A DNA stretch of 64,000 bases from Gammaproteobacteria bacterium (GCA_965277715.1 OZ255836.1:3360001-3424000); one strand, 5' to 3'. Numbered from the stretch's first letter, positions 101-52,475 are shown. A program made the numbers and translations. Notes: generated from the sequence alone by a model not told the origin.

Positions 101-852
101 TGGTTACTGGTGACAATAGGGAACGGCCAACCCACGGCTCGGTTTATTACGGTGAGCGGTTTATTCCCTTTACTATTGAGCCGCGCACAGGTCATGGCCA
201 CAAAGTGCGCATTAAAGTGTATGCCGATAAACGCGTTGTGGTACAGGCACCGCTACAGGCCAATTACGATGACATTATCGAGGCCGCGCAAAAACGCGCC
301 CGCTGGATTCAGCAGCAGCTAATTATTTTTTCAACCCACTGTAACGATGTGCTGCCGCGCTTGTATGTCAGCGGGGAGAGCCATTTTTATTTAGGCCGTC
401 GGCATTTATTAAAAGTCACCGTGGATCGACAACACGCGGCGCAGGTGAAGTTATTGCAAGGTGTTTTGCAGGTGTACACGCCCTCTGCCGAGAAGACCCG
501 CACGCTGTTAATGGGGTGGTATAAACAGCGTGCCAACGATGTTTTTGATCGTCGACTTGAGGCGTTGCTGGATAAGATTTGGTGGCTGGAAGATAAGCCC
601 GCATTTACTTTGCGGATGATGCAGACACAATGGGGCAACTGCTCACCTGCTGGTGTGCTTACGTTAAATCCGCACCTGGTGAAGGCGCCCACACCGTGTA
701 TTGATTATGTTTTATTACACGAGATTTGCCATATTGCCGAGCATAATCATAGTCAACAGTTTTATCGTTTGGTCGAGCAAATAATGCCGCAGTGGCAATC
801 GGTCAAAACCCGGCTGGATAACATGGCTTATTTTTATTTGAATGATGCGTAA
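97..852 (+). CDS. M48 family (YgjP/DUF45) zinc metallopeptidase-like protein
   Basis: YxSGESHFYLGR, QWGNCS and IDYVLLHEICHIAEHNHS (HExxH) motifs; ATG at 97 overlaps the upstream stop. Confidence 0.9.
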   Translation: MMVTGDNRERPTHGSVYYGERFIPFTIEPRTGHGHKVRIKVYADKRVVVQAPLQANYDDIIEAAQKRARWIQQQLIIFSTHCNDVLPRLYVSGESHFYLGRRHLLKVTVDRQHAAQVKLLQGVLQVYTPSAEKTRTLLMGWYKQRANDVFDRRLEALLDKIWWLEDKPAFTLRMMQTQWGNCSPAGVLTLNPHLVKAPTPCIDYVLLHEICHIAEHNHSQQFYRLVEQIMPQWQSVKTRLDNMAYFYLNDA

Positions 853-965
853 ACCTGAATTAATTAATTACGCCTAAAAAACCCGGAGCACTATCTATTA
901 TTCATGCGCTGAAGCGGGTGGATGAAGAGTACAACAATAAAATTTTACTATGAGGAGCTATACCG

Positions 966-1262
966 ATGTCAAATTTCCCCAATATCCCTGTACGAAAACC
1001 GATTGAGCTGGATTTTTATAAACTACCGCCCAATCACAACCCGATGATTCAGGTGGATGCCGATAGCACCTTCGATAATGTTCAGTCTTCCTTATGCCTG
1101 CTAATGCGCCTGGTAATGGACTCGGAACAAATGGAGCTGCATTACTCAGAGCGAGAAACGCGTGGTTTATTGTGTGTGTTGGAGTGTATGGAAAAGGCGA
1201 TGCGATTTGAGTTATATCATCGGGCTGATGAGAATGAGGGGGGTGAGTGTAATCAATCGTGA
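966..1262 (+). CDS. hypothetical protein
   Basis: 98-aa ORF with GAGGAG RBS just upstream. Confidence 0.55.
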   Translation: MSNFPNIPVRKPIELDFYKLPPNHNPMIQVDADSTFDNVQSSLCLLMRLVMDSEQMELHYSERETRGLLCVLECMEKAMRFELYHRADENEGGECNQS

Positions 1263-1296
1263 ATTTGGGGTAAGGTAAGTTTATCTACGGATTGTG

Positions 1297-1860
1297 CTAA
1301 ACCCATTCATGTGCATTATGGGCGCACCTATCGCTCGCAATAATCACATGCTCCTGACGGGAACGAAAACACGATAAATAGACGCTCTCTCCCCAAACAG
1401 ATCGAGCGTCTGTCAATGCACAGATTTGTTCTACACCCCGCAAAAATAGCGCTGATGCCTTCACTTTTTTGCCTTTTTTTGTCCTGACCTGAGTATTGTC
1501 AGGAATGCGGATAGAAAACGGAATATTCTTCTTTTTCAAATACATAATCCATTCTTTACCTCGAAATTCACGGTCAGCCAATAAGGCACTGATCGTCTGT
1601 ACAGGAAAAACAGTCAAATAACGATTAACCCGATCAATCCGCTCCTGAGTATGGCTGTTTCCCGCTTTGTCTAAAATAGGGGAACCGCTACATTGTGCCA
1701 GTCAATGGAAAGAACCAATAGGTTTACATGCGTCATACCCAACTTCCAGTGGGTTCGGTCAATGCTTACAGTCCAAGGCGGACATTGGGCAATCAGCTTA
1801 ATTAACAACGGGGCAATAGTATTCGGCTTCAAATCAAAATGACGCAAAAAACGTTTATTT
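1297..1860 (-). pseudogene. IS4-superfamily DDE transposase remnant
   Basis: Minus strand reads SIDRTHWKLG...LLVLSI then, after a frameshift near 1675, GNSHTQERI...LLADREFRGKEW; truncated at both ends. Confidence 0.75.
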
Positions 1861-1988
1861 CAATACCTTAATTTATTTTGTCCTGTACAGAGTGGCGTTA
1901 CTATGAAAGTTAACGGGACAGCAGTGATGTTTCACTCGTGATGTTCAGGGTATTTCTCTATTCTTTCACGGGCGAAACCACTGCTGCC

Positions 1989-2014
1989 CGGCAACTGCTC
2001 CTGTGTTGCTCTAT
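1989..2014 (+). repeat. partial copy of the intergenic CGGCAACTGCTCCTG(C/T)GTTGCTCTAT repeat
   Basis: 25/26 identical to 35141-35166. Confidence 0.6.
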
Positions 2015-2226
2015 TTTTATAAAACTATTTAAAAATGGCACATTGTTTAAATAATATTTATAAAAAAGAAAGTTATTTCGTGGGCACTCTTTATTTATCA
2101 ATACAGGTGTACGCCAACTGTTTCTATGCAAAGCAGGCTGACGCTGAAAGCATGAAGCTGTGTTTCTGATGCATTGCCTGCTTATTTATATCGCTTTATA
2201 TCGGTCAATTTAAAGCTGGGACAATG

Positions 2227-2973
2227 TTAGAGTATCTGGCTTAAAAATTCCTGCGTTCGCGGGTCTTTTGCTTCGGTGAAGAAGGTCGATGGCGGCCCGT
2301 GTTCGACGATAACGCCTCGGTCCGTGAAGTAGATGTGGTCGGCGATTTCACGCGCAAAACCCATTTCGTGGGTGACGAGGATACATGTCATGCCATCTTG
2401 TGCCAGGTTTTTGATCGCGATGAGGACTTCTTTGACTGTTTCCGGGTCGAGCGCGGCGGTGACTTCGTCGAATAACATTATGTCAGGGTTCATCGCCAGG
2501 GAGCGGGCAATCGCGACGCGTTGTTGTTGGCCACCCGATAATTCGCCGGGGTAGCTGTGCTCCTTGTCTTGTAGGTTGACGCGCTGCATTAACGCATGTG
2601 CGCGTTGCTCAACTTCAGCGGGGTTTTGTTTTAGTACTTTGATGGGGGCCATCATCACATTTTGCAGGGCGGTTTTGTGTGGAAATAAATTGTATTGCTG
2701 GAAAACCATGCCGACTTTTTTGCGCAGTGCCAGTTTGTCCAGTTGGGGGTCGTGAACCTCTTGCCCCTGTACTTTAATGGAACCGGAATTGATGTCGTTG
2801 AGTGCATTGATGCAACGAATTAATGTCGATTTTCCAGAACCGGATGGGCCGATAATGCAAATTACCTCACCCTTCATTACATTGATGGAAATACCCTTGA
2901 GTACTTCGAGCGAACCAAAGGATTTGTATACGTCTTTTATCGATATGATGGGTTGATCTTGTGTCCAGCTCAT
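2227..2973 (-). CDS. polar amino acid ABC transporter ATP-binding protein (GlnQ-like)
   Basis: GPSGSGKS Walker A, LSGGQQQRVAIAR signature, MLFDEVTAALDPE. Confidence 0.95.
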   Translation of the reverse strand: MSWTQDQPIISIKDVYKSFGSLEVLKGISINVMKGEVICIIGPSGSGKSTLIRCINALNDINSGSIKVQGQEVHDPQLDKLALRKKVGMVFQQYNLFPHKTALQNVMMAPIKVLKQNPAEVEQRAHALMQRVNLQDKEHSYPGELSGGQQQRVAIARSLAMNPDIMLFDEVTAALDPETVKEVLIAIKNLAQDGMTCILVTHEMGFAREIADHIYFTDRGVIVEHGPPSTFFTEAKDPRTQEFLSQIL

Positions 2974-2989
2974 CGGCCAGCAGCCCTCT

Positions 2990-3889
2990 TTAAAGTTTTA
3001 CCGCAAAGCGCTTTTCCAGTGCCATTGTGAGGCGTGCGATGGGGTAGCAATAAGCAAAAAATATAAGCAGTGCAAAGCTGTAAAACGGCACCAATAGTTC
3101 GGGGTGGTTGTTTTCTGCTTCGATAGCCTGGCGGCTCAATGTAATCAGTTCTTCGACGCCGAGTAGCGAGCATAATGGCGTGGCCATCGTGAGGATGGCG
3201 TACCAGTTCATCCACGGTGGGAGCATGCGCTTGAAGCACTGTGGCATGATAACTTGCCACAGTGTTTGCTGGCGCGTATAGGCCAGCGATTCGGCTGCTT
3301 CCCACTGCCCGGATGGCACCGACTGCACCGCACCGCGCACCAGCTCTGCCACATTGGCCATAATGGGGAGTGACAGGCCAAACACGGCTTTCATCCAGTC
3401 AGGCACACGGATAATCCAGTCGCCGATGACAATTTCAAACGGCAGTGCGAGGAGTACGATAAACAACAAAACCAGCCACGGTGAGTTGCGAAATAATTGG
3501 GTGAAAAATTTTGCTGGCAGGCGGATAGCGGCGAACGGCGATAGCTGCGCCAAGCCCAATAACACACCGGCGATGGTGCCGATCAGCATGGTCATCAGCG
3601 AGATGATGATATTGAATAAAAAGCCACCACTGACTAAGAAGGGCAGCCATTTGAATAGTGCCTGGAGTGCGTGTGTGTACGTGTATTGTGACGCCGCCAG
3701 TGTACTCAGGGGCCAGGCAAATATCAGCGCGATCAATAGGGCGAGTGTCCAGGGGGAAAACCCTGCGAGCCAGCGGCAGAAACCGAGGCTGTCACTGCCA
3801 ATATAGCCGGTATTGGCAAGCGGCAGTAATACCGGCAAATCGGTTTGCATATTGGCGTTGACGCCGGGAATGTGTTTCTTTTTCACCAT
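2990..3889 (-). CDS. amino acid ABC transporter permease
   Basis: FRNSP and AELVRGAVQSVPSGQWEAAESL (EAA) motif; hydrophobic. Confidence 0.93.
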   Translation of the reverse strand: MVKKKHIPGVNANMQTDLPVLLPLANTGYIGSDSLGFCRWLAGFSPWTLALLIALIFAWPLSTLAASQYTYTHALQALFKWLPFLVSGGFLFNIIISLMTMLIGTIAGVLLGLAQLSPFAAIRLPAKFFTQLFRNSPWLVLLFIVLLALPFEIVIGDWIIRVPDWMKAVFGLSLPIMANVAELVRGAVQSVPSGQWEAAESLAYTRQQTLWQVIMPQCFKRMLPPWMNWYAILTMATPLCSLLGVEELITLSRQAIEAENNHPELLVPFYSFALLIFFAYCYPIARLTMALEKRFAVKL

Positions 3890-3905
3890 TTACCGGGCGC
3901 CTGCT

Positions 3906-4664
3906 CTACTGACCATAGCCGGGAATGCGTAAGGACGTCTCCCAGCGGTTCATGCCACTGACCAGTACACCGACCAGTAAAATAAAGGTAATAAATAATA
4001 CCAACATGGTCGGGTACAACGCGCTTGGGTAGTCGTTCCATATGCCGACACTTTCATACAGCAGCTCGGGCACGGCAATGCCAATTGCCTGGGTGGTGGT
4101 TTTAACCAGGTTGACGAGGTTATTGTTGAGCGCGGGTAAGGAGACGCGAAATGCCAGAGGCAAAACCACATTGGTGTACGTTTGCAACCGGGAAAACCCC
4201 AGCGCACTGGCGGCTTCCTTGGTGGATTCGGGGACTGCTTCAATACCGGCGCGAAATATTTCCACATTGAAGGCCCCGGCGAAAAATGACAGGGAGATAA
4301 TCGCCCAGCCGACGTTGGAGATCAGGGGTATTTCCGTCCAGCCGTCGGGGCCGGTAACAGTTGGGGTCAAGTGCCCCAAGGCAAAATAGAAAAACAGTAG
4401 TTGTACAAAGGGGGGCGTGTTGCGAAAAAACTGGATATAGCCTTGTACGATAAGCCGCAACCCTTTATTCGGTGAATTTTGCAGCCAGGCGCCGACGACA
4501 CCGATAAGCACTGAAAACAACACGCAGGCAATGGATAGGATGATAGTGGTCTTGAGCCCGCCGACAATCCGCCACCACTGAAACGCATCGTAGAAAAAGA
4601 TGAAATTCCAGCGCGGATACTCATCCGCTATGTGGCGGAAGAACTCGGTAAATACTTCAAGCAT
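3906..4664 (-). CDS. amino acid ABC transporter permease
   Basis: FRNTP and EIFRAGIEAVPESTKEAASALG motif. Confidence 0.93.
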   Translation of the reverse strand: MLEVFTEFFRHIADEYPRWNFIFFYDAFQWWRIVGGLKTTIILSIACVLFSVLIGVVGAWLQNSPNKGLRLIVQGYIQFFRNTPPFVQLLFFYFALGHLTPTVTGPDGWTEIPLISNVGWAIISLSFFAGAFNVEIFRAGIEAVPESTKEAASALGFSRLQTYTNVVLPLAFRVSLPALNNNLVNLVKTTTQAIGIAVPELLYESVGIWNDYPSALYPTMLVLFITFILLVGVLVSGMNRWETSLRIPGYGQ

Positions 4665-4751
4665 TTAGGTGGTGAGATCGATTGGTTTAGGGAGTGTACA
4701 GGGCGCTGGCAACCTGGAAAAAACTGGCTGCCAGCGCGTTGATACACAAAA

Positions 4752-5597
4752 CTATTTAGCTAACCAATCTTTATATTTGGCGTTGTGATCGGCGAGAAAG
4801 GCGGTAGGCTTGATGCCCCATTTCTTTTCCCATTCAATCAGTTGGCCAGACTGATGCCAGTTAAACGTCATGCCAGACATAAACTGACCAAATATGCAGT
4901 CTTTTTCAGCCAGTGGTACGGCCAGTGCCCAGGGGTTGTCGTCTTCTGATCGCAGCGGCATTTCAAACGCATCGTAGTCACCTGAGGCGAGGTCAGAGCC
5001 AATCGATGAGTCGTCGTACACCCAGGCGACACATTTTTTATCGCGCAGTGCCTGCTTGGCTTCGGCATTGCCTGTAAAAGCGACGACGGTTACCCCGTAG
5101 CGCTCGGTGACGATTTTATTGTAAAACGCCCCCTGTTTGCCGCACACAGGTTTGCCGCGCAGGTCTTCCCAGTTTTTGAAGCCAAGCGCTTTGGGTGCCA
5201 TGACATTGGTGCCAGAGGTGTAGTAGTTGGGCTGGGTGATGCCGACAATTTTGCGCCGGTCGTCACGGTCTGACATGGTGGCGATAAACATATCGGTTTT
5301 GCCCTGTTCGAGGAATTGCATACGGTTTGACGATTGCACCGCGACCAGTTCCAGCTCAACTCCCATGGTTTCAGCGACATCTTTGGCCATATCGATTTCC
5401 ATGCCGACAATGCTGCCGTCACTGTCGCGAAACCCCCAGGGCTTATAGTCTGCTTTGACACCGACGACAAGCTTGCCACGGCTCATCACCTTGTTCCACG
5501 TATCGTTGCTGCATTGTGCCGCGTACGCTGCGCTACTGCTCATCAGTAGTGCTGCTGCGGCTGTGCTAATGCCAAATGTGGCGAGTTTTTTATACAT
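4752..5597 (-). CDS. amino acid ABC transporter substrate-binding protein (family 3)
   Basis: Signal peptide; RGKLVVGVKADYKPWGF, GMEIDMA motifs. Confidence 0.93.
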   Translation of the reverse strand: MYKKLATFGISTAAAALLMSSSAAYAAQCSNDTWNKVMSRGKLVVGVKADYKPWGFRDSDGSIVGMEIDMAKDVAETMGVELELVAVQSSNRMQFLEQGKTDMFIATMSDRDDRRKIVGITQPNYYTSGTNVMAPKALGFKNWEDLRGKPVCGKQGAFYNKIVTERYGVTVVAFTGNAEAKQALRDKKCVAWVYDDSSIGSDLASGDYDAFEMPLRSEDDNPWALAVPLAEKDCIFGQFMSGMTFNWHQSGQLIEWEKKWGIKPTAFLADHNAKYKDWLAK

Positions 5598-5807
5598 AGG
5601 TAAATCCTCCAGTGAGTATTGGATTGGGGGGCAGTAAGGTATTTATCGTGTTTGTGTGTCAGCTTGCCTGCCACACGTTTATTAACCTTCGATTGTTATA
5701 CTGAACAGTTGGCGAATTTAAGTCAACACTTCAGGGTTACATGATAACCTTAGTAGATTTCAGCCAGATCATCTGGGTTTTCTCACTGGGTATTATCGCT
5801 ACTAATT

Positions 5808-6596
5808 ATGTGCCGTCACGCTGCTTATCTTGGAAATACTATTTCACTCGCCCGGTTTATGCTCGAATCTGAGCACAACCTGATCGAGCAGGCTATCTAC
5901 CCAAAAGAAATGCGCATCGGGCGGTTTAATGCGGATGGCTTTGGTATCGGGTGGTTTCTTGAAGGTGGTAAACCCGTTTGTTACAAAAATATCCAGCCTA
6001 TCTGGTCAGACACCAATTTACCCGCACTGGGTGCCTCGCTGCACAGCGATCAGTGGATTGCGCTGGCGCGGGGGGCCTCACCAGGCTTAGGCGTGAGCAT
6101 TGATAATACCCACCCATTTGCCGACCATCGCTGGCTGTTTACCTTAAACGGCATCATCACTGATTTTGCCGATACGCTGCGCCCGGCCATCACGGCCAGA
6201 CTTTCCGACAACATCGCAGCGAGCACGCGGGGCCACACGGATGCCGAATTTATTTTTGCCCTGCTACGCCAGTTGTCGATGGAGGATGAGCAGGCGACGA
6301 CAGCGGATCTGTTGGTACGGCTTATCGCTTATATTGAAAGCATTGCGGGCGCTGTTGAGGTGGCATTAAGTATTTTACTGTGTGAACACGGTGCGCTATA
6401 CGCGGTTCGCCATGCGATTAATCTGCCTAATCCTACGCTTTATTACAGTGATAATTATTGTGGCGGCCAGGCGGTGTCGTCCGAACCGATGGGGGATCGC
6501 AAGCAGTGGCAGATGCTGCCGGAGCAACATTTGTTGGTGGTAAAAAGGGCGGGTGAAGCGCGATTGCTGCCCTTGAACCGGGGGGCGTTTTCTTGA
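5808..6596 (+). CDS. class II glutamine amidotransferase, EgtC-like
   Basis: N-terminal MCRHAAYLG (Cys2 nucleophile), NADGFGIGW, PIWSD, NTHPF, TDAE. Confidence 0.8.
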   Translation: MCRHAAYLGNTISLARFMLESEHNLIEQAIYPKEMRIGRFNADGFGIGWFLEGGKPVCYKNIQPIWSDTNLPALGASLHSDQWIALARGASPGLGVSIDNTHPFADHRWLFTLNGIITDFADTLRPAITARLSDNIAASTRGHTDAEFIFALLRQLSMEDEQATTADLLVRLIAYIESIAGAVEVALSILLCEHGALYAVRHAINLPNPTLYYSDNYCGGQAVSSEPMGDRKQWQMLPEQHLLVVKRAGEARLLPLNRGAFS

Positions 6597-15585: not shown

Positions 15586-15640
15586 TATGATTTTATGGGT
15601 ATCTTTTCAGTTTTTCTGTATGATTTTATGGGTATCTTTT
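15586..15640. repeat. 22-bp direct repeat TATGATTTTATGGGTATCTTTT x2
   Basis: Identical copies at 15586-15607 and 15619-15640, upstream of the AAA gene. Confidence 0.85.
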
Positions 15641-15744
15641 AATACTTACTTTACCTAAAAACACCGATAGTGACTCAACAGGCCTTGTATCTAAAGAAAA
15701 GGCTCAGGTCATAAGCGACTACGGCAGATGGTCAACAATGTGCT

Positions 15745-16092
15745 TCAGCAGGAATACACCACGGGAATTCGAGGTGTTTTGCGTGAACGAACGGCATCCA
15801 CATTTTCCAGTGGGCGTTTCAATACACGGGTATATAAAAAAACTAAGGCATTAAATGCCTGGTTTTGCGTGGCCGCAGCCACATTGGCTTTTGTTGCCAA
15901 ATATCCCAGAAAATCCTCAGTCTTACGCTCTGGTTCAACAAACAGTGCTTTCCGTGCCTGCATTGGGTGAAAACGTATAAAGCGGACAATCCAATTGCAG
16001 TAAGCGCGCTCGGTATGAATAGAATAATGGAGGCGTCTCATGAGGTCACGCATTTCCGTAAGCAGTTTTTTGTCCTTTGTTGAAGTTGACAT
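15745..16092 (-). pseudogene. intI: integron integrase, N-terminal domain only
   Basis: HYSIHTERAYCNWIVRFIRFH, VAAATQNQAFNALVFLY, RIPVV then stop; catalytic domain absent; divergent from cassettes. Confidence 0.85.
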
Positions 16093-16566: not shown

Positions 16567-16572
16567 CTCAAA

Positions 16573-16636
16573 ACATAACAAGAGCTTCGTGCGGGACGCT
16601 CCGCGTTGCTACCCGCCCCACAAGCAGGAGTTAGGT
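16573..16636 (+). other. attC site
   Basis: ACATAAC...GCTTCGTGCGGG..CCCGCCCCACAAGC...GTTAGGT, 64 bp. Confidence 0.8.
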
Positions 16637-16679
16637 ATTCGGAACGGGAATATATGAAATGAAAATTTTTGCATCTTAT

Positions 16680-16943
16680 GGGGTCAAGATCTTATGGGGT
16701 CAGGCCAGTTATTCACTGTTCAATTGACTTTCAATCTGGCACATGACCTCTCTTGCCTTGGCTGAACAAAATACTGCTTTCGCTCACCCGGCAACAACTT
16801 GCCACAGTGATTACTATCAAGTGGCTGGCCAACTTTTCCCGCAACTGTGGCCGCACATCAAGGCCACTCTGACTTTCTTTGTGTTCGGCCAAGCATAAGC
16901 GAAAAGCTTTGTTGTCTAACACAGTCGAGACGTTATTTTTTAC
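16680..16943 (-). mobile_element. partial, internally deleted Y1 TIR element with duplicated end
   Basis: ATCTTATGGGGTCA occurs twice, then GGCCAGTTATT; body matches parts of 16944-17903. Confidence 0.75.
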
Positions 16944-17903
16944 GGGGTCAGGCCAGTTATTCACTATTCAATTGACTTTCAATCTGGTACATCATCTCAT
17001 AGAACTCTCCGGTGTCTAACTGCTTCCTAATATAGGCTATTGCGCTCGATACACCACCAGGATGACTTAGACCGAAAATAGTGAGTAATCGCTTTTAGTG
17101 ACATACCGCTAAACCGCTGGCAGTAATACATCGCCAGTTTACGGGGGATGTTCACACTGCCTCCCTTGCCTTGACTGAACAAAATACTGCTTTCGCTCAC
17201 CCAGCAACAACTTGCCACAGTGATTACTATCAAGTGGCTGGCCAACTTTTCCCGCAACTGTGGCCGCACATCAAGGCCACTCTGGCTTTCTTTGTGTTCG
17301 GCCAAGCATAAGCGAAAAGCTTTGTTGTCTAACACAGTCGAGACGTTATTTTTGCCGTAAAATCGTTGTATATCCTCATCAACCCCTTGATCTACATAAT
17401 CTACGCAGCGTTGATAGCTGTTTCGCGCCGGTAAACAGGCATAAACGTGATTGCGGCATAACCAAGTGAGGCTCGATGCCTTTCCTATATAAGCGGGGTA
17501 ACGAGACCAGGGATAGCTCTCTAGCGATTGAACCAGTGGCCGTTTGGTTTCAAGGGTTTCTATGAATATAGCGAGACAGTGGCAATAGATAGGCGTCTTC
17601 ATCGACATTCAGGGCCTTAAACCGTCCTCTAAACTAGGAGCCATCGGTTTTTTTAAGACGGTTATAACGCTGTGTATAAACTCCATCGACATGCTGTATG
17701 ATGCGACTGAGGTTAACATCCGGTGTTTCCAGCAGTAGGTGGTAGTGGTTGCCCGTTAGGCAGTAAACTTCGCCATGAAAAATCGCCTTATGCTCCCGAC
17801 AACGGTTCATTATGTGGTAGAAGGCGTTTTCGTATTCTATGCGCTGAGGCCTTGGCATTGGTTGGTATTGGTACAGCCTATACTAAATAACTAGCCTGAC
17901 CCC
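16944..17903 (-). mobile_element. TIR-flanked Y1/HUH (RAYT-like) transposase element, gene decayed
   Basis: 18-bp TIR GGGGTCAGGCCAGTTATT / AATAACTAGCCTGACCCC; MPRPQRIEY..YHIMNR..NHYHLL, nonsense at DGS*FRGRFKA; C-terminal HTH-like part 17027-17608. Confidence 0.85.
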
Positions 17904-17910
17904 CTTTTTT

Positions 17911-17977
17911 TGAACGCTAAAAAATGAATGAACGATTAAAAAATTGTTGAATTTAACTGCGGGTCCATATATGACCC
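17911..17977 (+). mobile_element. orphan right end of the IS110/IS1111 element
   Basis: 17911-17978 matches 49515-49582 at 67/68 positions. Confidence 0.75.
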
Positions 17978-19537
17978 CAATGGCACTAAGTTAAGCGGTT
18001 TTAGCGGGTAAAATAAACGAAAAAATAACTGTAATAAACCCAATAAAAAAGGCTGAAATGTTATAATTTTGTATGAAAAATACAACCTTATTTCTACCCG
18101 GATTCAACATCCAAACACTCCGCAAAACACCCCGTTCAGCCATTCAAATCTTGCACGATAAGATAGCAAAAATACGTCACAAATCACTGAGTGAACTACC
18201 TGTTTTTCTTGGCGATATTATACCCACGAATATTCTTAAACCGAATGATTTTGGTGTGAATAGTCGTCGACGTATTTTCAGTAAAGAAAATACTTTCTGG
18301 TTGTTTTTTTCACAAATAATGAACGCCGATGGTGGCTGTAAAGAAGTCGTTAGACAACTGCAAAATGTCGCCCACAACCAAGGCATTCCCATACCTTCAT
18401 CATCCACCTCCGCCTATTGCCAAGCACGTAAAAAACTACCCATGGACGATCTTAAAAACGTATTTTCAGGGACGTGTCGATTATCGCCACCTCAACCCAA
18501 AGCGCTCCAAGGTCGACCGGTTATCGTTGCCGATGGGACAGGCCTATCCATGCCCGATACGCCCGCGAATCAACAAACTTACCCACAACCGAAATCACAA
18601 AAACAGGGATGCGGATTTCCTCAAGCACGGCTTTTAGCTTGTTTTAATCTTTATAGCGGTTTAATTCTGAGCTATGCACTAGGAAATAAAAAAAGTCATG
18701 AGCTAAGACTTTTAGAAGAACAATGGGATACCTTCAATGAAGGTGACATTTTCTTAGGTGATAAAGGTTTTTGCAGCTTCTACGATATTGACTGCCTCTC
18801 TCGACGAACGGTTGACAGTGTCGTTACATTGGCGCGGAGAACGCCCAGCACTGCCTCCCAGGCCAAAAAGAAGATAGCCGATAATGACCTTCATATTGAA
18901 TGGCAAAAACCTAAACACACAAAAGCGACCCGTTACACAAAAGAGCAGCATAGCGACCTTCCAAAGACCTTAACTTTACGACAAATACACGTCAGTATTG
19001 TACGAAAAGGATTTAGGACGAACCATTTTTATATCATCACGACACTACTTGATGCTCAGCAATATCCCGCTATAGAAATTATCGACCTCTATGCACAGCG
19101 CTGGAATGTGGAACTGTATTTTCGCAATATTAAAACCACCATGGGTATGGATATATTACGCTGTAAAACACCTGATATGGTTCGTAAGGAAATCATCATG
19201 CACATGATTGTTTACAACACGATCAGGCACATCATGTGTGTCGCTTCATACCGACATGACACACCGGTTGATCGGCTAAGTCTTAAAGGTGTTTTGCAAA
19301 CACTCCGACAAAGCACTTCATCACTTGGTAGTGGGCAGAGTCCAGCACAAAAAAGACGGCAATATCTTGATTATTTATATGCAGCGATTGCGGATGATCG
19401 TGTGCTTCATCGACCTTTTAGATTTGAACCAAGAGTGGTAAAAAGGCGACCTAAACCACGGGCATTAATGACTCGACCAAGGAACGTTTTAAAAACTGAA
19501 TATTGGCAAGCTAAAGCGGCTTAACTTAGTGCCATTG
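17978..19537 (+). mobile_element. complete IS4-family element (IS4-a)
   Basis: 19-bp perfect IR CAATGGCACTAAGTTAAGC; 11-bp TSD ATATATGACCC (17967-17977, 19538-19548). Confidence 0.92.
18073..19524 (+). CDS. IS4-family DDE transposase
   Basis: VADGT, LGDKGF, YAQRWNVELYFRNIK (YREK motif), EPRVVKRRPK. Confidence 0.93.
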   Translation: MKNTTLFLPGFNIQTLRKTPRSAIQILHDKIAKIRHKSLSELPVFLGDIIPTNILKPNDFGVNSRRRIFSKENTFWLFFSQIMNADGGCKEVVRQLQNVAHNQGIPIPSSSTSAYCQARKKLPMDDLKNVFSGTCRLSPPQPKALQGRPVIVADGTGLSMPDTPANQQTYPQPKSQKQGCGFPQARLLACFNLYSGLILSYALGNKKSHELRLLEEQWDTFNEGDIFLGDKGFCSFYDIDCLSRRTVDSVVTLARRTPSTASQAKKKIADNDLHIEWQKPKHTKATRYTKEQHSDLPKTLTLRQIHVSIVRKGFRTNHFYIITTLLDAQQYPAIEIIDLYAQRWNVELYFRNIKTTMGMDILRCKTPDMVRKEIIMHMIVYNTIRHIMCVASYRHDTPVDRLSLKGVLQTLRQSTSSLGSGQSPAQKRRQYLDYLYAAIADDRVLHRPFRFEPRVVKRRPKPRALMTRPRNVLKTEYWQAKAA

Positions 19538-19557
19538 ATATATGACCCCCTTTTTTT

Positions 19558-19659
19558 CCGGTTCATTATGTGGTAGAAAGCGTTTTCGTATTCTATGTGC
19601 TGAGGCCTTGACATCGGTTGGTGTTGGTACAGTCTATACTAAATAACTAGCCTGACCCC
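19558..19659 (-). mobile_element. terminal fragment of the Y1 TIR element
   Basis: Matches 17803-17903 including the AATAACTAGCCTGACCCC end. Confidence 0.75.
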
Positions 19660-19677
19660 CTTTTCCGACCTACGCCA

Positions 19678-20137
19678 TATAAAAACGACAATGAAGATGC
19701 ACACTTTCCGTTGTAAGACGCCAGAAATGGTTGAGAAGGAAATGTGGGTGCACATATTAGCTTACAACCTTATTCGCTTATTAATGGCGCAATCTGCCTT
19801 ACTAGTGGACATACTGCCTCGACAGATAAGTTTTAAGCATACGTTACAAATTTGGGTAGCGTATCGTTATCAGAAAGGCGGTAGCCCTCTGGGTAGTGAT
19901 AAGGTGTTGGCGCTATGTGCGTTGATTGCAGAAAACTGTGTGGGTAATCGACCGGGGCGTATTGAACCAAGAGTGGTTAAACGAAGGCCCAAACCGTATC
20001 CTTTATTGATGCAGCCAAGGGACGTGGCCAGAAGTGTTGTTAAAAAATATGGCCATCCCAAAAAACAGAAATAGGTCATTTACAATGAAAGTACTTCCAT
20101 ATTTTTCATGTACTTAGAGCTTAAGGAAGTGCCATTC
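19678..20137 (+). pseudogene. 3' fragment of a second IS4-family element (IS4-b)
   Basis: RCKTPEMVEKE..EPRVVKRRPK (ORF 19691-20074); right IR CTTAAGGAAGTGCCATTC ends at 20137. Confidence 0.82.
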
Positions 20138-20340
20138 AGGTCATACCCATAAATTTGGCTATGAATTCAGAAGTAATTACCTTTAGATGTGTTTCTCAAA
20201 ATGCAAGACAGAGCATATTATTTAAGCAAAAATTTGAAAGAGATGAATCTTCATCTATAGGCTGGAAACCTGTTTGGAATGACAGAGTAGAAAAAGCCAT
20301 ATCCTCACTTGAAGGGTATAGCAGGTATTAGGAACTAATT

Positions 20341-20559
20341 ATGAGCATTAATTTTGATAAAGAGGAAATTGATATTCCGTGTGAGGGATGTAAAAGAAAA
20401 AACAAGAAAACAATTGGTTGGATAAAAAGAAATAAACAACTAAATTGTACGTGTGGTGCAATAATAAATTTAGAAACATCTCAATTTACAAGAGAGTTAC
20501 AGAAAATTGAAAAATCATTTTTAGACCTTGAAAAAATATTTAAAGGACTTGGGAAATAA
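20341..20559 (+). CDS. small zinc-ribbon protein (CxxC...CxC), probable cassette gene
   Basis: IPCEGC...LNCTCG; AT-rich; followed by attC left half GCATAACAAAGCACTC. Confidence 0.65.
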   Translation: MSINFDKEEIDIPCEGCKRKNKKTIGWIKRNKQLNCTCGAIINLETSQFTRELQKIEKSFLDLEKIFKGLGK

Positions 20560-20579
20560 AAAGCATAACAAAGCACTCC

Positions 20580-20722
20580 CTAGGCGACTATACAGAATGG
20601 CTTGTAGCAAACGCCCTAAGTCTAGAGTTAGAGAGCAATTCTAAAGCTGGGTATGATGGTGTTTGTAAAAATGGTGTTCGTGTCCAAATAAAAGGACGGC
20701 GAGTAACAAAAAATGGTTCTTC
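20580..20722 (+). pseudogene. fragment of a PD-(D/E)XK-like nuclease gene
   Basis: Reads LGDYTEWLVANALSLELESNSKAGYDGVCKNGVRVQIKGRR (E..D..QxK) with no start. Confidence 0.45.
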
Positions 20723-20754
20723 CCCGATTATTGTGAAGCCACTGGTTCCATATC

Positions 20755-20858
20755 CCCCTGTGTCAGGCTAGTTGTTCCTCTCCCTAAATTGGGATTCAAT
20801 AAGTTTTTACAGGAGGCAAAAAGAGAGTGACATGGGTTATCCAATAGAAAGAAAGGCC
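20755..20858 (+). mobile_element. left-end fragment of the IS3-family element
   Basis: Diverged reverse-complement match to ~52360-52463 (IR through start of orfA, YPIERKA). Confidence 0.75.
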
Positions 20859-21016
20859 CCTGTGTGTCAACCTCACCTCAAGCCACTATGATTTAAGATA
20901 ACATCTAAATCAGGGCAGATATCAAGAGTGAGAACAATGCCAAAACCTATATCAGATAAACCCCAGCCAGAGTCATGTGAGGCCAAGCCTGACCCGACAC
21001 GGGAGAAAAAGCTTAC
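20857..21016 (+). mobile_element. left-end fragment of a second IS3-like element
   Basis: CCCCTGTGTGTCAA end, then MPKPISDKPQPESCEAKPDPTREK cut by the Y1 TIR. Confidence 0.45.
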
Positions 21017-21976
21017 GGGGTCAGGCCAGTTATTCACTGTTCAATTGACTTTCAATCTGGTACATCATCTCATAGAACTCTCCGGTGTCTAACTGCTTTC
21101 TGATATAGGCTATTGCGCTCGATACACCACCAGGATGACTTAGACCGAAAATAGTGAGTAATCGCTTTTAGTGACATACCGCTAAACCGCTGACAGTAAT
21201 ACATCGCCAGTTTACAGGGAATGTTCACACTGTCTCCCTTGCCTTGGCTGAACAAAATACTGCTTTCGCTCACCCGGCAACAACTTGCCACAGTGCTTAC
21301 TATCAAGTGGCTGGCCAACTTTTCCCGCAACTGTGGGTGCACATCAAGGCCACTCTGGCTTTCTTTGTGTTCGGCCAAGCATAAGCGAAAAACTTTGTTG
21401 TCTAACACAGTCGAGACGTTATTTTTGCCGTAAAATCGTTGTATATCCTCATCAACCCCTTGATCTACATAATCTACGCAGCGTTGATAGCTGTTTCGCG
21501 CCGGTAAACAGGCATAAACGTGATTGCGGCATAACCAAGTGAGACTCGATGCCTTTCCTATATAAGCGGGGTAACGAGACCAGGGATAGCTCTCTAGCGA
21601 TTGAACCAGTGGCCGTTTGGTTTCAAGGGTTTCTATGAATATAGCGAGACAGTGGCAATAGATAGGCGTCTTCATCGACATTCAGGGCCTTAAGCCGTCC
21701 TCTAAACTAGGAGCCATCGGTTTTTTTAAGACGGTTATAACGCTGTGTATAAAGTCCATCGACATGCTGCATGATGCGACTGAGGTTAACATCCGGTGTT
21801 TCCAGCAGTAGGTGGTGGTGGTTGCCCGTTAGGCAGTAAACTTCGCCATGAAAAATCGCCTTACGCTCCCGACCACGGTTCATTATGTGGTAGAAGGCGT
21901 TTTCGTATTCTATGCGCTGAGGCCTTGGCATCGGTTGGTATTGGTACAGTCTATACTAAATAACTAGCCTGACCCC
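21017..21976 (-). mobile_element. second 960-bp copy of the Y1 TIR element, decayed
   Basis: Colinear with 16944-17903 (offset 4073); same TIRs, deletion and nonsense codon. Confidence 0.87.
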
Positions 21977-22211
21977 CTTTTCTTCTTCATCGATAGCGAA
22001 AAGTAACTACCAAAAAAATAATTGGCATCGTAAACAGAATTTATATTCACTGCATGATATTGAATATAATAATTTGAATGACGCAATTAATAAACACTGC
22101 AAGACTGATTTTGATACAAATTCAAACTTTAAAAGACTGAGTGAATTTATCGCTATAACTAGAGAGTCGGCACAAGTTTCTATTGGGAACTGGCAGCATG
22201 CGTTAAAAGAC

Positions 22212-22289
22212 TGCTAACAAGGCCATAAAATTCGCTCCCTACAGTCGCCGGACGCTCGCAAGCTCGCGCCGTTTATGGCGGCGTTATGT
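22212..22289 (+). other. attC site
   Basis: TGCTAAC AAGGCCATAAA ... TTTATGGCGGC GTTATGT, 78 bp, after a 5'-truncated AT-rich ORF. Confidence 0.85.
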
Positions 22290-22302
22290 GTAGAAATTAA
22301 TA

Positions 22303-22608
22303 ATGAGCAAAGAATCAATATTTATAATAAGTCCATTTATTTTTGGACTCATGCTTTTAAGTATTAGCCTTTATGACCTGCATCAATTTGATGTGGGTGG
22401 TATAGCGGTTACTGAGATGCTGCGAAGAGAAATGCCATTTTTTGTTCTCGGTATTTTGAGTAGCTTTTGTTTGTTTGTAAAATCAATATATTGGCTTTGG
22501 ACGAGATGCTGGATTAAATCATTCGTTTCTGTGTTTAGCATTCTTTCATTTTTTGTTTTATTTGCAGTAGGCGGGTCATTGGGGGCTGCTTATCTTAATG
22601 CAACTTAG
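22303..22608 (+). CDS. integron cassette: small membrane protein
   Basis: Three hydrophobic segments; begins after GTTATGT and is followed by complementary R'' ACATAAC (22617-22623). Confidence 0.75.
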   Translation: MSKESIFIISPFIFGLMLLSISLYDLHQFDVGGIAVTEMLRREMPFFVLGILSSFCLFVKSIYWLWTRCWIKSFVSVFSILSFFVLFAVGGSLGAAYLNAT

Positions 22609-22645
22609 CAGGGTACACATAACAAACCGTTGAAGTCGGACAGTC

Positions 22646-22738
22646 ACGGTGTTTGTCAAGGTAGTTGTCCGTTTTACTATGCTACTTGCTTTTCAATTCC
22701 ATTGTGCTTTTGTCTCATGGCCAAGCCTTCCCTTTCCG
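22646..22738 (-). mobile_element. right-end fragment of the IS3-family element, interrupting an attC
   Basis: Near-identical to 50785-50877; follows the attC left half at 22617-22645. Confidence 0.8.
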
Positions 22739-22746
22739 AGTCTTAT

Positions 22747-23493
22747 GGGGTCAGGCCAGAATGGCACTTCTTTAAGCTGTAAGTATTTGAAAGTATTGGT
22801 ATTACGTGCTTGGTTCAGATAACTTGGCATATGGTTCTTGAAAGCAATATTTGTAAAACTATCCCGGTTATCATTGGCGGCAACTTTCAAAATATCATTT
22901 TTGTTTCTTAGAAAGAATAAATAAACTCTTTACTATCAGTTGCTTACGCCTTAAGGAAGTGCCATTCGGGTCAGGCCAGTTATTCACTGTTCAATTGACT
23001 TTCAATCTGGTACATCATCTCATAGAACTCTCCGGTGTCTAACTGCTTCCTGATATAGGCTATTGCGCTCAATACACCACCAGGATGACTTAGACCGAAA
23101 ATAGTGAGTAATCGCTTTTAGTGACATACCGCTAAACCGCTGGCAGTAATACATCGCCAGTTTACGGGGAATGTTCACACTGCCTCCCTTGCCTTGACTG
23201 AACAAAATACTGCTTTCGCTCACCCGGCAACAACTTGCCACAGTGCTTATTATCAAGTGGCTGGCCAACTTTTCCCGCAACTGTGGGCGCACATCAAGGC
23301 CACTCCGGAAGCGATCTGCAGCTTCGGCCAATGTAGTGAGAAACGCTTGGTAGTAAGCTTCGCCATGAAAAATCGCCTTACGCTCCCGACAACGGTTGGT
23401 TATGTGGTAGAAGGCGTTTTCGTATTCTATGCGCTGAGGCCTTGGCATCGGTTGATATCGACACAATCTATACTAAATAACTAGCCTGCCCCC
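22747..23493 (-). mobile_element. internally deleted Y1 TIR element with the MITE in its left TIR
   Basis: ORF 23020-23466 fuses N-terminus to C-terminal part; right TIR variant AATAACTAGCCTGCCCCC. Confidence 0.82.
22759..22967. mobile_element. 209-bp MITE with IS4-b-type ends
   Basis: IR GAATGGCACTTCTTTAAG / CTTAAGGAAGTGCCATTC; 11-bp TSD GGGTCAGGCCA (22748-22758, 22968-22978). Confidence 0.88.
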
Positions 23494-44537: not shown

Positions 44538-44686
44538 AATGCATGTAAAGCGTGACCTCTGGTGAAAGTAGGTTCAGCACTTAGTCTGATTCAGCTAATG
44601 CTTTTCAAGCCGGTTAGCCTGAGCGATTTCGACATAAGTATCCAATCGGGTTTCCAGCTTAATAACTCATTAAAGGGGTCAGTACC

Positions 44687-45325: not shown

Positions 45326-45335
45326 CTACCTTAAA

Positions 45336-46117
45336 GGGGTCAGTACCCTTTATTTATTATCTTGTTTAATATAGGGCCTCCCTCTCTTCGAATGCCCCAC
45401 TTTCAGACTTAAAAGGCTCTCTATCTCATGCTTAAACCGATCACTGCCCAGGGGAACACCTGTTTGAGTACATTGACGAATTTTCTCAACTAGGCTCTCA
45501 TCCATCACTTCCGTAAAGAGAGACCTGTAAGCCAGCTGCCTCTCTGCTTTTTTATTGTCTAACGCCAAGTAGAGAGGGTGAGGAGTGACCAGTGGATCAT
45601 CATGCCCGAGTCCATTGGCATGATAACTTGACCATCGGTAATCCTGGCAGCGCTCGACCATTAGTGCTCTAACCGGGTTCGTTTCTATATATCGACAGCA
45701 AGCCAATAAATACGGCTCTGTATCAACACTACTGGCCTTAAAACGCCCTTCCCACAAAGTGCCACTCCTCCCATATTTATGATTAAAGTAGGGGACATAA
45801 CGCCGCCCCACTGTCTGAGATAGTTTCGATAAGTGGCTGGTATCACTCGCACTCACCAACAAGTGCAAATGATTCGACATTAAGACATAGCTATGAATTC
45901 GGCACGCTAGCTGTTCTGCCGCCTCCTGTAGCCAGCGCTTATAGATAAAGAAATCCTCATCTTCAGCAAAGACGACCTGGCGACTGTTCCCTCTAAGGAT
46001 CATATGGATTGGTACATCGGGGATAAAAAAGCGCGGTTTTCTTGGCATTGTGTTGAGGCTTCAAGAGCGAATGAAAACAGAATTTTATACAAAAATCCTA
46101 TAAAAGGGTACGACCCC
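45336..46117 (-). mobile_element. TIR-flanked Y1/HUH element with intact gene
   Basis: Ends GGGGTCAGTACCCTTTA and TAAAAGGGTACGACCCC. Confidence 0.8.
45350..46048 (-). CDS. Y1/HUH (RAYT-like) tyrosine transposase
   Basis: MPRKPR..HMILRGN, YVLMSNHLHLL (HUH), LWEGRFK, RYIETNPVRA, YRWSSY. Confidence 0.92.
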   Translation of the reverse strand: MPRKPRFFIPDVPIHMILRGNSRQVVFAEDEDFFIYKRWLQEAAEQLACRIHSYVLMSNHLHLLVSASDTSHLSKLSQTVGRRYVPYFNHKYGRSGTLWEGRFKASSVDTEPYLLACCRYIETNPVRALMVERCQDYRWSSYHANGLGHDDPLVTPHPLYLALDNKKAERQLAYRSLFTEVMDESLVEKIRQCTQTGVPLGSDRFKHEIESLLSLKVGHSKRGRPYIKQDNK

Positions 46118-46126
46118 TTTATTTTT

Positions 46127-46205: not shown

Positions 46206-46219
46206 ACCTGAGACCCCTT

Positions 46220-49492: not shown

Positions 49493-49707
49493 ACCTTATT
49501 TACTGTGTCTGCTCTGAACGCTAAAAATTGAATGAACGATTAAAAAATTGTTGAATTTAACTGCGGGTCCATATATGACCCCTTAACTTTGGGCGCTATT
49601 TCCAATTTCTCGGGATATCCTTGTATATTTCTATATAATGCCTGTCCTATTTTCCTTCTTGATAAATAGTTTGGGAATTTATACGGCCAGAAAGTGGCAC
49701 ATTACAA

Positions 49708-50784: not shown

Positions 50785-50792
50785 ACGGTGTT

Positions 50793-52457
50793 TGTCAAGG
50801 TAGTTGTCCGTTTTACTATGCTACTTGCTTTTCAATTCCATTGTGCTTTTGTCTCATGGCCAAGCCTTCCTTTTCCGGGTTTAACCACACCCCCGATACC
50901 GGTTCGAGGTGTTTAATATCCTGGCTCCAGCGTTCAGGGTGTTTGGCCTTTGCTTGTTCATAAACTGCTTTTCTGGCTGCCAGTATCGCGTGATCTTCGC
51001 CTTTATGACGCGAGGCTGGTGTCACAAACCCAATGCCGCTATGGCAATGAGAGCCGTTGTACCATTGCACAAATCCATGCACCCAGTTTCGCGCAGAGGC
51101 TAAACTATCAAATGGCTTTGACGGATAGGCAGGCGTGTATTTTAAGGTTCTAAACAGACTTTCTGAATAAGGATTATCATCGCTTACCGATGGCCTACTA
51201 AACGAAGGTATCACACCCAACCATTGCAGTTTTGCTAACATGGTAGCACCTTTCATCGGGCCACCATTATCCGCGTGTAATACCAATTGACTCTGGCTGC
51301 ACCCCTCCGCTAAACAGGCACGCTGGATCAGCGCCGCTGCCAGATCAGCCGATTCACTGTCATGCACTTCCCAGGCAACAATTTTACGACTGTAAATATC
51401 CATCATCATGTAAAGCCGGTAAAACCACCCGGTTATGTTCGATTTCAAAAAGGTAATATCCCAAGACCACACCTCGTTTGGCCTTGATGCCAGGTAGCTG
51501 TTAGGTTTGTGCCGTTTTTTAGGCGTCGCCGCCTTACCTTGCCGCTGCAGTTGGTTTTCCGACTTTAACACCCGATAGAAGCTTGACTCTGACCCAATAT
51601 ACACACCTTCATCCGCCAATTTGGGCACAATTTGCGAGGGGGGTAGCGCTTGGTAGTTCGCTTCATTACAGGTGGTGACAATCAATGCCCGCTCTTCTGC
51701 TGTGAACTTATTACCAGGCGCCTGTCGATGAGCGCTGGGTCTGCCATCAGCACGGACAGTACCCGCGTTTGCCCAGCGTCGGTACGTCTTAGGGTGTCAC
51801 TCAAGCACTTTGCACGCTTTGCTTAATGTAGCGCCAGCGACAACGGCCTCTTTGATTAAACGGATACTATTTTGGCGATCTGAATGGCAGGTCATTCGTC
51901 CTCTCCCTCCCCCCAGATCGCTTGGGCCTTTTTTCTAAGCACCAGCAAAGCGGCTGTTTCGGCTAACGCTTTCTCCTTTCGGTGCAGGTCTTGTTCGAGA
52001 CGTTTAATACGTTTATCCGCTTCTCTACGACTGGTTTGTAAACGTTTCGTTTGGGCGCGATCCCAGTCATTGGCTTGTTCACAAGCCATTCGCCATGCCT
52101 TAATCTGATCAGGGTACAAACCACGATGACGGCAATAAGCTGAAAGGTCTGTTTCGCTTAATGACGCACTTTCCAGAACCGCTGAAAACTTATCCGAAGA
52201 ACCCCAACCTGCTGGTGTCAAATCGCCATCTGGCATGAGTTCGCCTTTCGCTCTTGCTGGGGCTCGCCAACTATAAAGCGTACCTTGTGCAATGCCTTCT
52301 TCTTTGGCTAACCGGGAAATTGTCTGATTGTTCGGCGGCAGCATCTTCTTTAAAACAGCGGCCTTTCTTTCTATTGGATAACGCATACCACTCTCTCTTT
52401 GCCTCCTGTAATAACTTATTGAATCCCAATTTAGGGAGGGGGACAACTACCCTGACA
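50793..52457 (-). mobile_element. IS3-family element, orfB inactivated
   Basis: IR TGTCAAGGTAGTTGTCC / GGACAACTACCCTGACA; orfA 51892-52386; orfB 50816-51895 (WSWDIT, HADNG, YSESLFRTLK) with in-frame TGA at 51797-51799. Confidence 0.88.
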
Positions 52458-52475
52458 CAGGGGGGGAGAAGGCAC

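Follow-up and report, generated by a model that had tools for sequence, protein, structure and literature searches.

The closest described relatives of the elements treated here are the TIRYT genes, named by Di Nocera, De Gregorio and Rocco together with the TIRtron, the unit that such a gene forms with its terminal inverted repeats (TIRs) (Di Nocera et al., 2013, BMC Genomics 14:522). In the sections of that work drawn on here, the repeats carry the motif GGGGWSAS, lie at fixed distances from the gene, and also occur as solo copies that cluster. In the later TnpAY1 classification, as far as the portions cited here go, most TIRYTs fall into subclass 2.1, to which group 1 of the repetitive extragenic palindrome (REP)-associated tyrosine transposases (RAYTs) of Bertels 2017 was mapped, and group 2.1.2 has a tail resembling Bac_DnaA_C (Quentin et al., 2018, BMC Genomics 19:475). 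According to the same portions, TIRYT genes of subclass 2.1 are present in ~15% of the strains surveyed, with 1.9 copies at 49% identity and a median of 238 amino acids (aa); subclass 2.3, nested in 2.1, has 325 aa and the motif YVDLNP; and subclass 1.1, comprising insertion sequences (IS), has 4.8 copies at 99.4% identity. A full-text literature search traced the name TIRYT to only two works and TIRtron to one, none of them with experiments, and a wider search returned no later work on these elements. Here we describe a cluster of Y1/HUH nuclease elements at positions 16,680 to 23,493 of a 64,000-nucleotide (nt) stretch of DNA from a Gammaproteobacteria bacterium (GCA_965277715.1 OZ255836.1:3360001-3424000), hereafter called the window. 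These elements belong to the already described TIRYT/TIRtron class, probably TnpAY1 subclass 2.1; the class is known only from sequence analysis, as an earlier note on this DNA had said of TIR-flanked relatives of such enzymes. The repeats are quite probably decayed copies of a TIRtron that, when intact, would be a compact element of ~1.03 kb, made up almost entirely of one TIRYT gene and bounded by inverted repeats with a GGGGTCA core.

Terminal repeats, copies and the encoded nuclease

A repeat search over 16680-23493 revealed three long direct-repeat families together with many inverted pairs of 18-24 nt. The pattern GGGGTCAGGCYAGTTATT, with up to 3 mismatches allowed, had 9 matches in the window, all located within 16696-23493, when 0.10 were expected by chance and none of 100 shuffled sequences reached 9 or more. 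Eight of the nine are true element ends, each an 18-nt TIR; the match at 20759 was rejected as a TIRtron end, being located inside the left inverted repeat of an IS3-family fragment. The arms of the TIR are complementary at 17 of 18 positions and can be extended to 24 nt at 88%, and GGGGTCAG, which fits the published GGGGWSAS, is present at every full end. The element ends in the window read TTAY-GGGGTCAGG...CCTGACCCC-CTTTT.

In total, the cluster consists of two 960-bp copies (A and B), a third copy (C) split by a miniature inverted-repeat transposable element (MITE), two truncated copies (D and E) and one stub ending at GGGGTCA (Table 1). The five whole or partial copies with an 18-bp TIR listed in the earlier note are thus recovered, with the correction that the feature at 16680 is only a stub. 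Copies A and B differ at 22 of 960 positions without any indel, copy D is 92.7-97.9% identical to copy A, and copy E is 94-96% identical to both A and B. The stop codon of copy A falls inside its left TIR, while the left TIR of copy C is interrupted by an IS4-type MITE of ~208 bp (22759-22967), which produced the 11-bp target duplication GGGTCAGGCCA. All copies of this main family in the window have the same orientation, and no direct repeat flanks any of them, in agreement with the lack of target duplication noted before. The stub, D and A place three left ends in a row, and to the right of copy A lie three right-end units, each reading TGACCCC and then CTTTT, the middle one being a 68-nt unit of another family. 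A DnaA box was also considered in the TIR: TTATTCACT (16957-16965) in the left TIR agrees with the literature consensus TTWTNCACA at 8 of 9 positions, the right TIR at 6 of 9, and the relatives contain none, and this candidate was set aside as a probable chance match.

The Pfam domains Y1_Tnp and Bac_DnaA_C (PF08299) match the open reading frames (ORFs) of copies A, B and C on the minus strand. An intact relative of 322 aa, P0002, turned up in a protein search; it is encoded on the window's own 4.29-Mb contig and has both domains as well as the motifs GNHYH (HUH) and YIHRNP (tyrosine). When P0002 was aligned with 56 proteins translated from other genomes, H60-Y61-H62, Y119 and N123-P124 were invariant in all 57. 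The profile of this alignment matched DnaA domain IV in the PDB (E 4.7e-15); P0002 alone gave weak DnaA matches only (phmmer, E 0.02-0.1). The AlphaFold model (predicted local distance difference test, pLDDT, 90.9) had as its best Foldseek match the E. coli REP-associated tyrosine transposase 4er8_A, with a template modelling (TM) score of 0.77 on the target, followed by the IS608 and ISDra2 transposases, and the DNA-binding domain of DnaA (3pvp_B) was also matched at TM 0.76. P0002 stays below the cut-offs of both the NCBIfam RAYT model NF047646 (62.8 vs 80) and the IS200 model NF033573 (23.8 vs 55). By these profile and model comparisons, the product of the gene is a RAYT-like Y1/HUH single-strand DNA nuclease joined to a DNA-binding domain that resembles DnaA domain IV. 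Copies A and B retain the HUH and tyrosine motifs in a broken frame. Pfam, motifs and TIRs therefore all agree with the initial description of the repeats as Y1/HUH nuclease elements with GGGGTCA inverted repeats.

Multiplication of inactivated copies and how they may move

Lesions were scored against the intact paralog P0002. Common to copies A and B are an in-frame deletion of 22 codons (66 bp), a TAG stop codon at the position of Q97 and a frameshift behind YIHRNP; another frameshift, at residue 284, is found in A, B and C alike. Similarity between A and B ends a few bases outside the TIRs on both sides, and the flanks beyond differ on both sides. Since A and B have four lesions in common and unlike flanks, they multiplied after inactivation, which gives good support to the same proposal made earlier from the shared deletion and nonsense codon of the two 960-bp copies. 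The lesion pattern of A, B and C further indicates that the lineage multiplied at least two times after the first lesion. Every copy in the window is defective, and A, B and C descend from an already frameshifted ancestor.

It is barely credible that the repeats are assembly duplications of a single element, even if only short contigs were available and the window itself may have been assembled from the very sample behind metagenome run X6. A and B differ at the 22 positions mentioned above, and the structures of C, D and E are different from each other. In run X6, a 735-nt contig with zero differences bridges the right junction of copy B into the adjoining cassette, and contigs with the deletion joint of copy D, with the C-type joint and with an undeleted variant are all present. 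In runs X1-X4, which are labelled sponge metagenome and come from three studies other than that of X6-X8, contigs cover 19660-22746 at 90-100% identity in its TIRtron, IS4-like and IS3-like parts; this cover of element parts at 90% identity or more also counts as evidence for movement of whole units. Neither cassette was covered in X1, X2 or X4, except for short stretches within 22132-22337 in X2, and such missing cover proves nothing. One X1 contig (21756-21866) extends 28 letters past the joint of the 66-bp deletion, less than the 31 needed, and was not counted as bridging; the summed word depth in X6, 700-6200 for element parts vs 240 for the cassettes, is not a copy number and was not used. 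The host is probably a sponge-associated gammaproteobacterium, and the species genomes searched include none that is closely related.

Clustered at 90%, P0002 falls into a group of seven proteins, of which five are full-length with 322 aa and encoded on the 4.29-Mb contig, while one comes from a small ENA contig. The five paralogs are 96.3-98.4% identical to each other (96.0-98.4% when the ENA-contig member is included as a sixth). Five near-identical paralogs in one genome are insertion-sequence-like behaviour, which in the literature is not shown for this class. In the metagenome-assembled genome G003, a 1021-bp unit of the same family is found at 99.5-99.7% identity in at least two contexts without target duplication, its identity stopping at CTAR-GGGG...CCCC-YTAG, a few bases outside the GGGG. 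In two contexts of the same genome (L038/L093 and L089), the outermost pentamer of the unit, CTAAG, is repeated 3-4 times with short spacers ahead of its 5′ end.

A scan of one genome per species detected more than 568 relatives, from which 78 loci were kept, and a long open frame with both motifs was present in 60 of these (the other 18 were dropped). A GGGTCA core lies within 150 nt upstream of the start in 55 of the 60 loci, usually 44-47 nt before the ATG, and in 39 of these 55 the matching inverted 14-mer with up to 2 mismatches is found at the stop codon. Outside the G run, A occupies the two positions in 27-33 of 52 upstream and in 32-34 of 45 downstream ends. The family and its GGGGTCA ends persist together across several phyla and across proteins only 36-56% identical. 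Circumstantial but consistent evidence thus indicates that the class moves as a unit, and what we see here looks like a genuinely jumping element and not a tamed gene.

Several points weigh against this reading. Neither an excision product nor an empty site nor a new insertion was seen, and the best match of coaBC among the genome contigs was 63%, with no close species there for an empty-site comparison. Compared as proteins, the intact paralogs are ~62-76% identical to copies A and B. Among the genome and metagenome contigs, the best full-length matches to P0002 reached 55-57% identity, with up to 73% in partial matches only, and an exact TIR scan of the genome contigs gave 4 matches, none of which was scored as a relative, as judged on taxon alone. 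None of A, B, C and E is a simple insertion with both halves of the disrupted target, and ordinary recombination of same-orientation copies could explain the missing target halves without any nuclease. G003 is metagenome-assembled, and of its four loci two are the same place and two share one flank. Many relatives have a GTCAAG...CTTGAC palindrome right after the GGGG; the window TIR has no clear one, and a hairpin-guided single-strand mechanism is not evident there. Finally, class 2 TnpAY1 genes are described, in the portions cited, as low in copy number and without evidence of mobility (Quentin et al., 2018).

This published view would suit a domesticated, immobile RAYT-like host gene, with GGGGTCA as a REP-like host sequence and copies made by segmental duplication. 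The nearest solved structure is likewise that of a domesticated E. coli REP-associated transposase, and solo TIRs cluster by the gene as REPs do by RAYT genes. We nevertheless hold domestication to be quite unlikely, given that A and B cease to be similar a few bases past their TIRs on both sides, that five intact paralogs at 96-98% identity in one genome are far from the 1.9 copies at 49% reported in those portions, that the 1021-bp unit of G003 recurs in different contexts, and that gene and GGGGTCA ends travel together across such divergent proteins and several phyla.

TTAY stands before all 5 left ends in the window and CTTTT after all 4 right ends, as the earlier note had seen in the form of TTA(C/T) and T-runs. 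TTAY as an IS608-like target was rejected as the leading reading, because at three junctions the neighbour supplies neither TTAY nor CTTTT. At D|A, the sequence of copy D continues as GCCGTAAAA in copy A, not as TAC; at IS3|C, the IS3 right-end piece is followed by TTTAACC in the intact copy instead of TCTTAT; and at E|IS4-like, intact IS4-like copies differ from the window upstream of 19671, with a loose end at that position. Given the neighbour sequence at these three junctions, TTAY and CTTTT are most likely borne by the element and travel with it as its outermost bases, so they are probably the element's own and not flank as first described. This fits G003, where 4-5 nt outside the GGGG are shared, and a Paraglaciecola sp. 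contig (L013), where the units begin ~10 nt outside the GGGG. A strongly preferred target on both sides is possible as another source of TTAY and CTTTT.

The observation that several ends abut truncated neighbours extends to six junctions: D|A; IS3 fragment|B; IS3 fragment|C; E|IS4-like fragment; truncated IS4|second TIRtron; and second TIRtron|last 80 nt of an IS4-like element. At each of them only 3-9 nt, probably part of the TIRtron itself, separate a truncated mobile element from the TIRtron end, and the other half of the neighbour is absent beyond the TIRtron at all six. The element end at 21016, called IS3-like before, is indeed an IS3-family left end.

Extra partial ends also occur in the relatives. 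We examined 95 ends with enough sequence on both sides, an outer copy being defined as at least 4 nt matching the outer flank plus GGTCA, and found such copies at 30 of the 95. Among 50 outer copies, 22 keep nothing past GGGGTCA, 13 are solo repeats with 16-30 nt retained, and in 14 the retained part exceeds 30 nt; at least one stub is present at 16 of the 95 ends. On the upstream side, 12 of 55 loci have extra TIR copies, always direct and in no case inverted (0/55), and seven loci with at least two TIR copies on the 3′ side have all of them oriented like the 3′ end. The sole exception is a downstream copy of opposite orientation in 1 of 55 loci, in a palindromic arrangement. The Paraglaciecola contig (L013:2900-4470) holds five nested 5′ units and four nested 3′ units, 97-100% identical, in which the 5′ units consist of the repeat alone or of the repeat plus 64 or 105 nt of the gene.

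Most likely, the element moves as a discrete unit without target duplication, like IS200/IS605, and the enzyme of the intact paralogs would mobilise those defective copies that retain both ends. The DnaA-like domain would hold the double-stranded inner half of the repeat, and the HUH domain would act on a single strand, with nicks beside GGGGTCA and at an outer terminus 4-10 nt further out. Where such cutting is abortive or repeated, it would leave stubs, nested partial ends of the same orientation and deletions of adjacent DNA. In a more tentative model, TIRtrons might be active insertion-sequence-like transposons and not domesticated genes, with a nuclease that cuts each end at two fixed places, right after GGGGTCA and 4-10 nt beyond the G run, with copying or joining that starts at an end and stops early giving rise to stubs, nesting and deletions, and with defective copies being moved in trans. 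If true, this would be a third mode of Y1/HUH transposition beside the peel-and-paste of IS200/IS605 and the REP mobilisation of RAYTs.

It is also possible that the TIRtrons are real, with broken neighbours and unmatched flanks coming from homologous recombination and later IS4 and IS3 insertions without involvement of the nuclease, and with copy number reflecting local rearrangement more than transposition. Recombination between copies of the same orientation, as we have here, would delete the DNA between them and leave one copy with foreign flanks; the IS4-type and IS3-type elements cause damage of their own in this region; and no target duplication marks clean insertions. That said, recombination cannot make the D|A junction, where one copy breaks off internally exactly at the outer end of the next, nor stubs ending after GGGGTCA, nor two copies with four shared lesions, and the second TIRtron, alone of its lineage at 45332-46121, also has truncated IS4-type pieces at both ends. 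The overall interpretation offered earlier is supported in part: it stands as to Y1/HUH TIR elements and copies made after inactivation; mobilisation in trans may occur, with intact paralogs in the genome, and the nuclease itself may make the adjacent deletions, recombination between same-orientation copies giving similar flank breaks. With five intact near-identical genes, a lineage multiplied after inactivation, many junctions, and predictable ends and likely nick site, the genome is a natural test set.

Integron context and other mobile elements

The cassette array hosting the TIRtrons runs from an integron integrase remnant to coaBC (23662). The next gene starts at 15544, and the catalytic part of the integrase is thus missing. 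The folds of the attC-like sites were no better than those of shuffled sequence, with no dedicated attC model run. By coordinate arithmetic, ~5.4 kb of the ~7.6 kb between the integrase remnant and coaBC (~70%) is TIRtron, IS4-type, IS3-type or MITE sequence, and the G+C content of the integron region is 42.6% vs 51.2% in the rest of the window. TIRtrons, together with IS4-type and IS3-type elements, turned what was probably a small integron, its integrase gene truncated, into ~70% mobile-element debris. To say that the elements break up the integron array is fair, with the restriction that the TIRtrons share the damage with two other kinds of element; taken for itself, the window shows nothing unusual, a decaying integron filled with mobile-element debris. 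Two tandem 33-nt units, 82% identical, are located at 15586-15651, between an AAA-ATPase gene and the integrase remnant.

Part of the IS3-family left end (20754-20863) is 92% identical to the left end of the apparently intact copy further downstream, and it also matches, in a plasmid record, the stretch just before an annotated transposase gene and the first part of that gene, which is itself followed by an IS3 family transposase gene. Next to each of the five IS4-type ends or insertions in the window stands an 11-mer with GGGTC(A/T) or AGGTCA, the adjoining 11-mers being located at 17967-17978, 19538-19548, 22748-22758, 22968-22978, 44676-44686, 20138-20148 and 46206-46216. In two cases, ATATATGACCC and GGGTCAGGCCA, the 11-mer forms a clean target duplication of 11 bp. 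It seems that the IS4-type elements home to the ends of TIRtrons, in a way reminiscent of IS231 and its insertion into the ends of Tn4430.

The 68-nt unit to the right of copy A is a discrete solo-end-like repeat of a third GGGGTCA-ended family. A second unit of this kind at 49515-49582, also ending in GGGTCCATATATGACCCC, is 98.5% identical and has the same inner boundary. The GGGGTCA at 17972/19543 was rejected as a TIRtron end, since it is part of this separate repeat.

The second TIRtron, of another lineage, is apparently intact and is the only copy of its lineage in the window. Its ORF (45350-46048, minus strand) encodes 232 aa with a Y1_Tnp match (E 1.9e-13) and the motifs NHLH, LWE and YIETNP. 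An 18-nt sequence, TTAAAGGGGTCAGTACCC, is repeated at 44670 and 45331 by this element. The TIRtron pieces of all three families in the window share one orientation, with genes on the minus strand, and the G+C skew is positive in 7 of 8 bins of the window; this would suit strand-specific, replication-linked insertion, the pieces not being independent events.

Table 1. Location of the TIRtron copies, integron parts and other mobile elements in the window
Feature	Position	Strand	Remarks
Integron integrase remnant	15745..16092	-	N-terminal 115 aa only; Pfam Phage_int_SAM_4, E 1.1e-21
attC-like site closing cassette 1	16570..16640	+	RYYYAAC and GTTRRRY cores read by eye
Stub	16673-16686	-	ATCTTAT (outer 7 nt of the element) plus GGGGTCA; in tandem before copy D
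Copy D	16696-16943	-	Left (gene 3′) end with ~160-bp internal deletion; cut exactly at the start of copy A
Copy A	16944-17903	-	960-bp defective TIRtron; TIRs 16944-16961 and 17886-17903; ATG 17858
68-nt unit	17911..17978	-	Ends in ATATATGACCCC; other GGGGTCA-ended family; insertion target of the IS4 copy
IS4-family element	17978..19537	+	483-aa DDE transposase; 28-nt inverted repeats; 11-bp target duplication ATATATGACCC
Copy E	19558-19659	-	Last 102 nt of the right (gene 5′) end: TIR and first 21 codons
Second IS4-like element, 3′ fragment	19671..20137	+	Truncated beside copy E; 127-aa ORF resembling by eye the C-terminal part of the 483-aa transposase
Further attC-like sites	20563-20637, 22216-22290		RYYYAAC and GTTRRRY cores read by eye
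IS3-family left end	20754..21016	+	Truncated exactly at copy B
Copy B	21017-21976	-	960-bp defective TIRtron; four lesions as in copy A
IS3-family right-end piece	22646..22741	-	98% identical to 50785-50880; truncated 5 nt before copy C
Copy C	22747-23493	-	TIRtron with large internal deletion, ~residues 50-214 of P0002
Second TIRtron, other lineage	45332..46121	-	Apparently intact; 22-nt TIRs with GGGGTCAG and GGGGTCGT cores, 77% complementary
IS3-family element	50785-52464	-	Apparently intact; HTH_Tnp_1 ORF and rve ORF

Comparison with known systems

With the TIRtrons of Di Nocera et al. (2013), as presented in the sections drawn on here, the elements of the window share a RAYT-like gene with TIRs in place of REP hairpins, the GGGGWSAS motif (here GGGGTCAG), TIRs that lie at a fixed upstream distance and overlap the 3′ end of the gene, and solo TIRs nearby. 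Those sections deal with single genes that have TIR families and offer no sign of whole units moving, whereas here we have several whole and defective units, five intact paralogs in one genome and copies with shared lesions. Stubs ending after GGGGTCA and strict nesting in the same orientation were not found described in these sections either. Compared with subclass 2.1 as defined in the cited portions of Quentin et al. (2018), P0002 has the Y---NP motif (YIHRNP), NHYH within NH[YF]H, a Bac_DnaA_C-like helix-turn-helix as in group 2.1.2, and no REP hairpins. It differs in being 322 aa long instead of the median 238; its length and its gammaproteobacterial hosts are nearer to subclass 2.3, but the motif YVDLNP does not fit. 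The five copies at 96-98% identity also set it apart, resembling subclass 1.1 instead.

The E. coli TnpAREP/REPtron system (PDB 4ER8) provides the best structural match to the N-terminal domain, and in both cases inverted cognate repeats flank the gene and repeats pile up nearby. The window elements differ from it in having no GTAG-tagged palindromes, in the extra DnaA-like domain and in the score below the NF047646 cut-off. Repeats of bacterial interspersed mosaic elements (BIMEs) alternate in orientation, whereas the extra repeats here keep one orientation per side.

The Y1/HUH fold, the lack of target duplication and the single orientation of all window copies are shared with IS200/IS605 elements such as IS608 and ISDra2. 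Unlike these, the TIRtrons described here have Y---NP instead of Y---Q, true inverted repeats instead of subterminal hairpins, no tnpB, and a score below the NF033573 cut-off. The target of IS608 is TTAC, whereas the conserved flank bases here seem to be carried by the element. IS91/Helitron-type rolling-circle elements also use an HUH nuclease, make no target duplication and leave partial copies with one terminus; they have two-tyrosine enzymes and unlike ends, in contrast to the one tyrosine, the symmetric TIRs and the partial copies of both ends found here.

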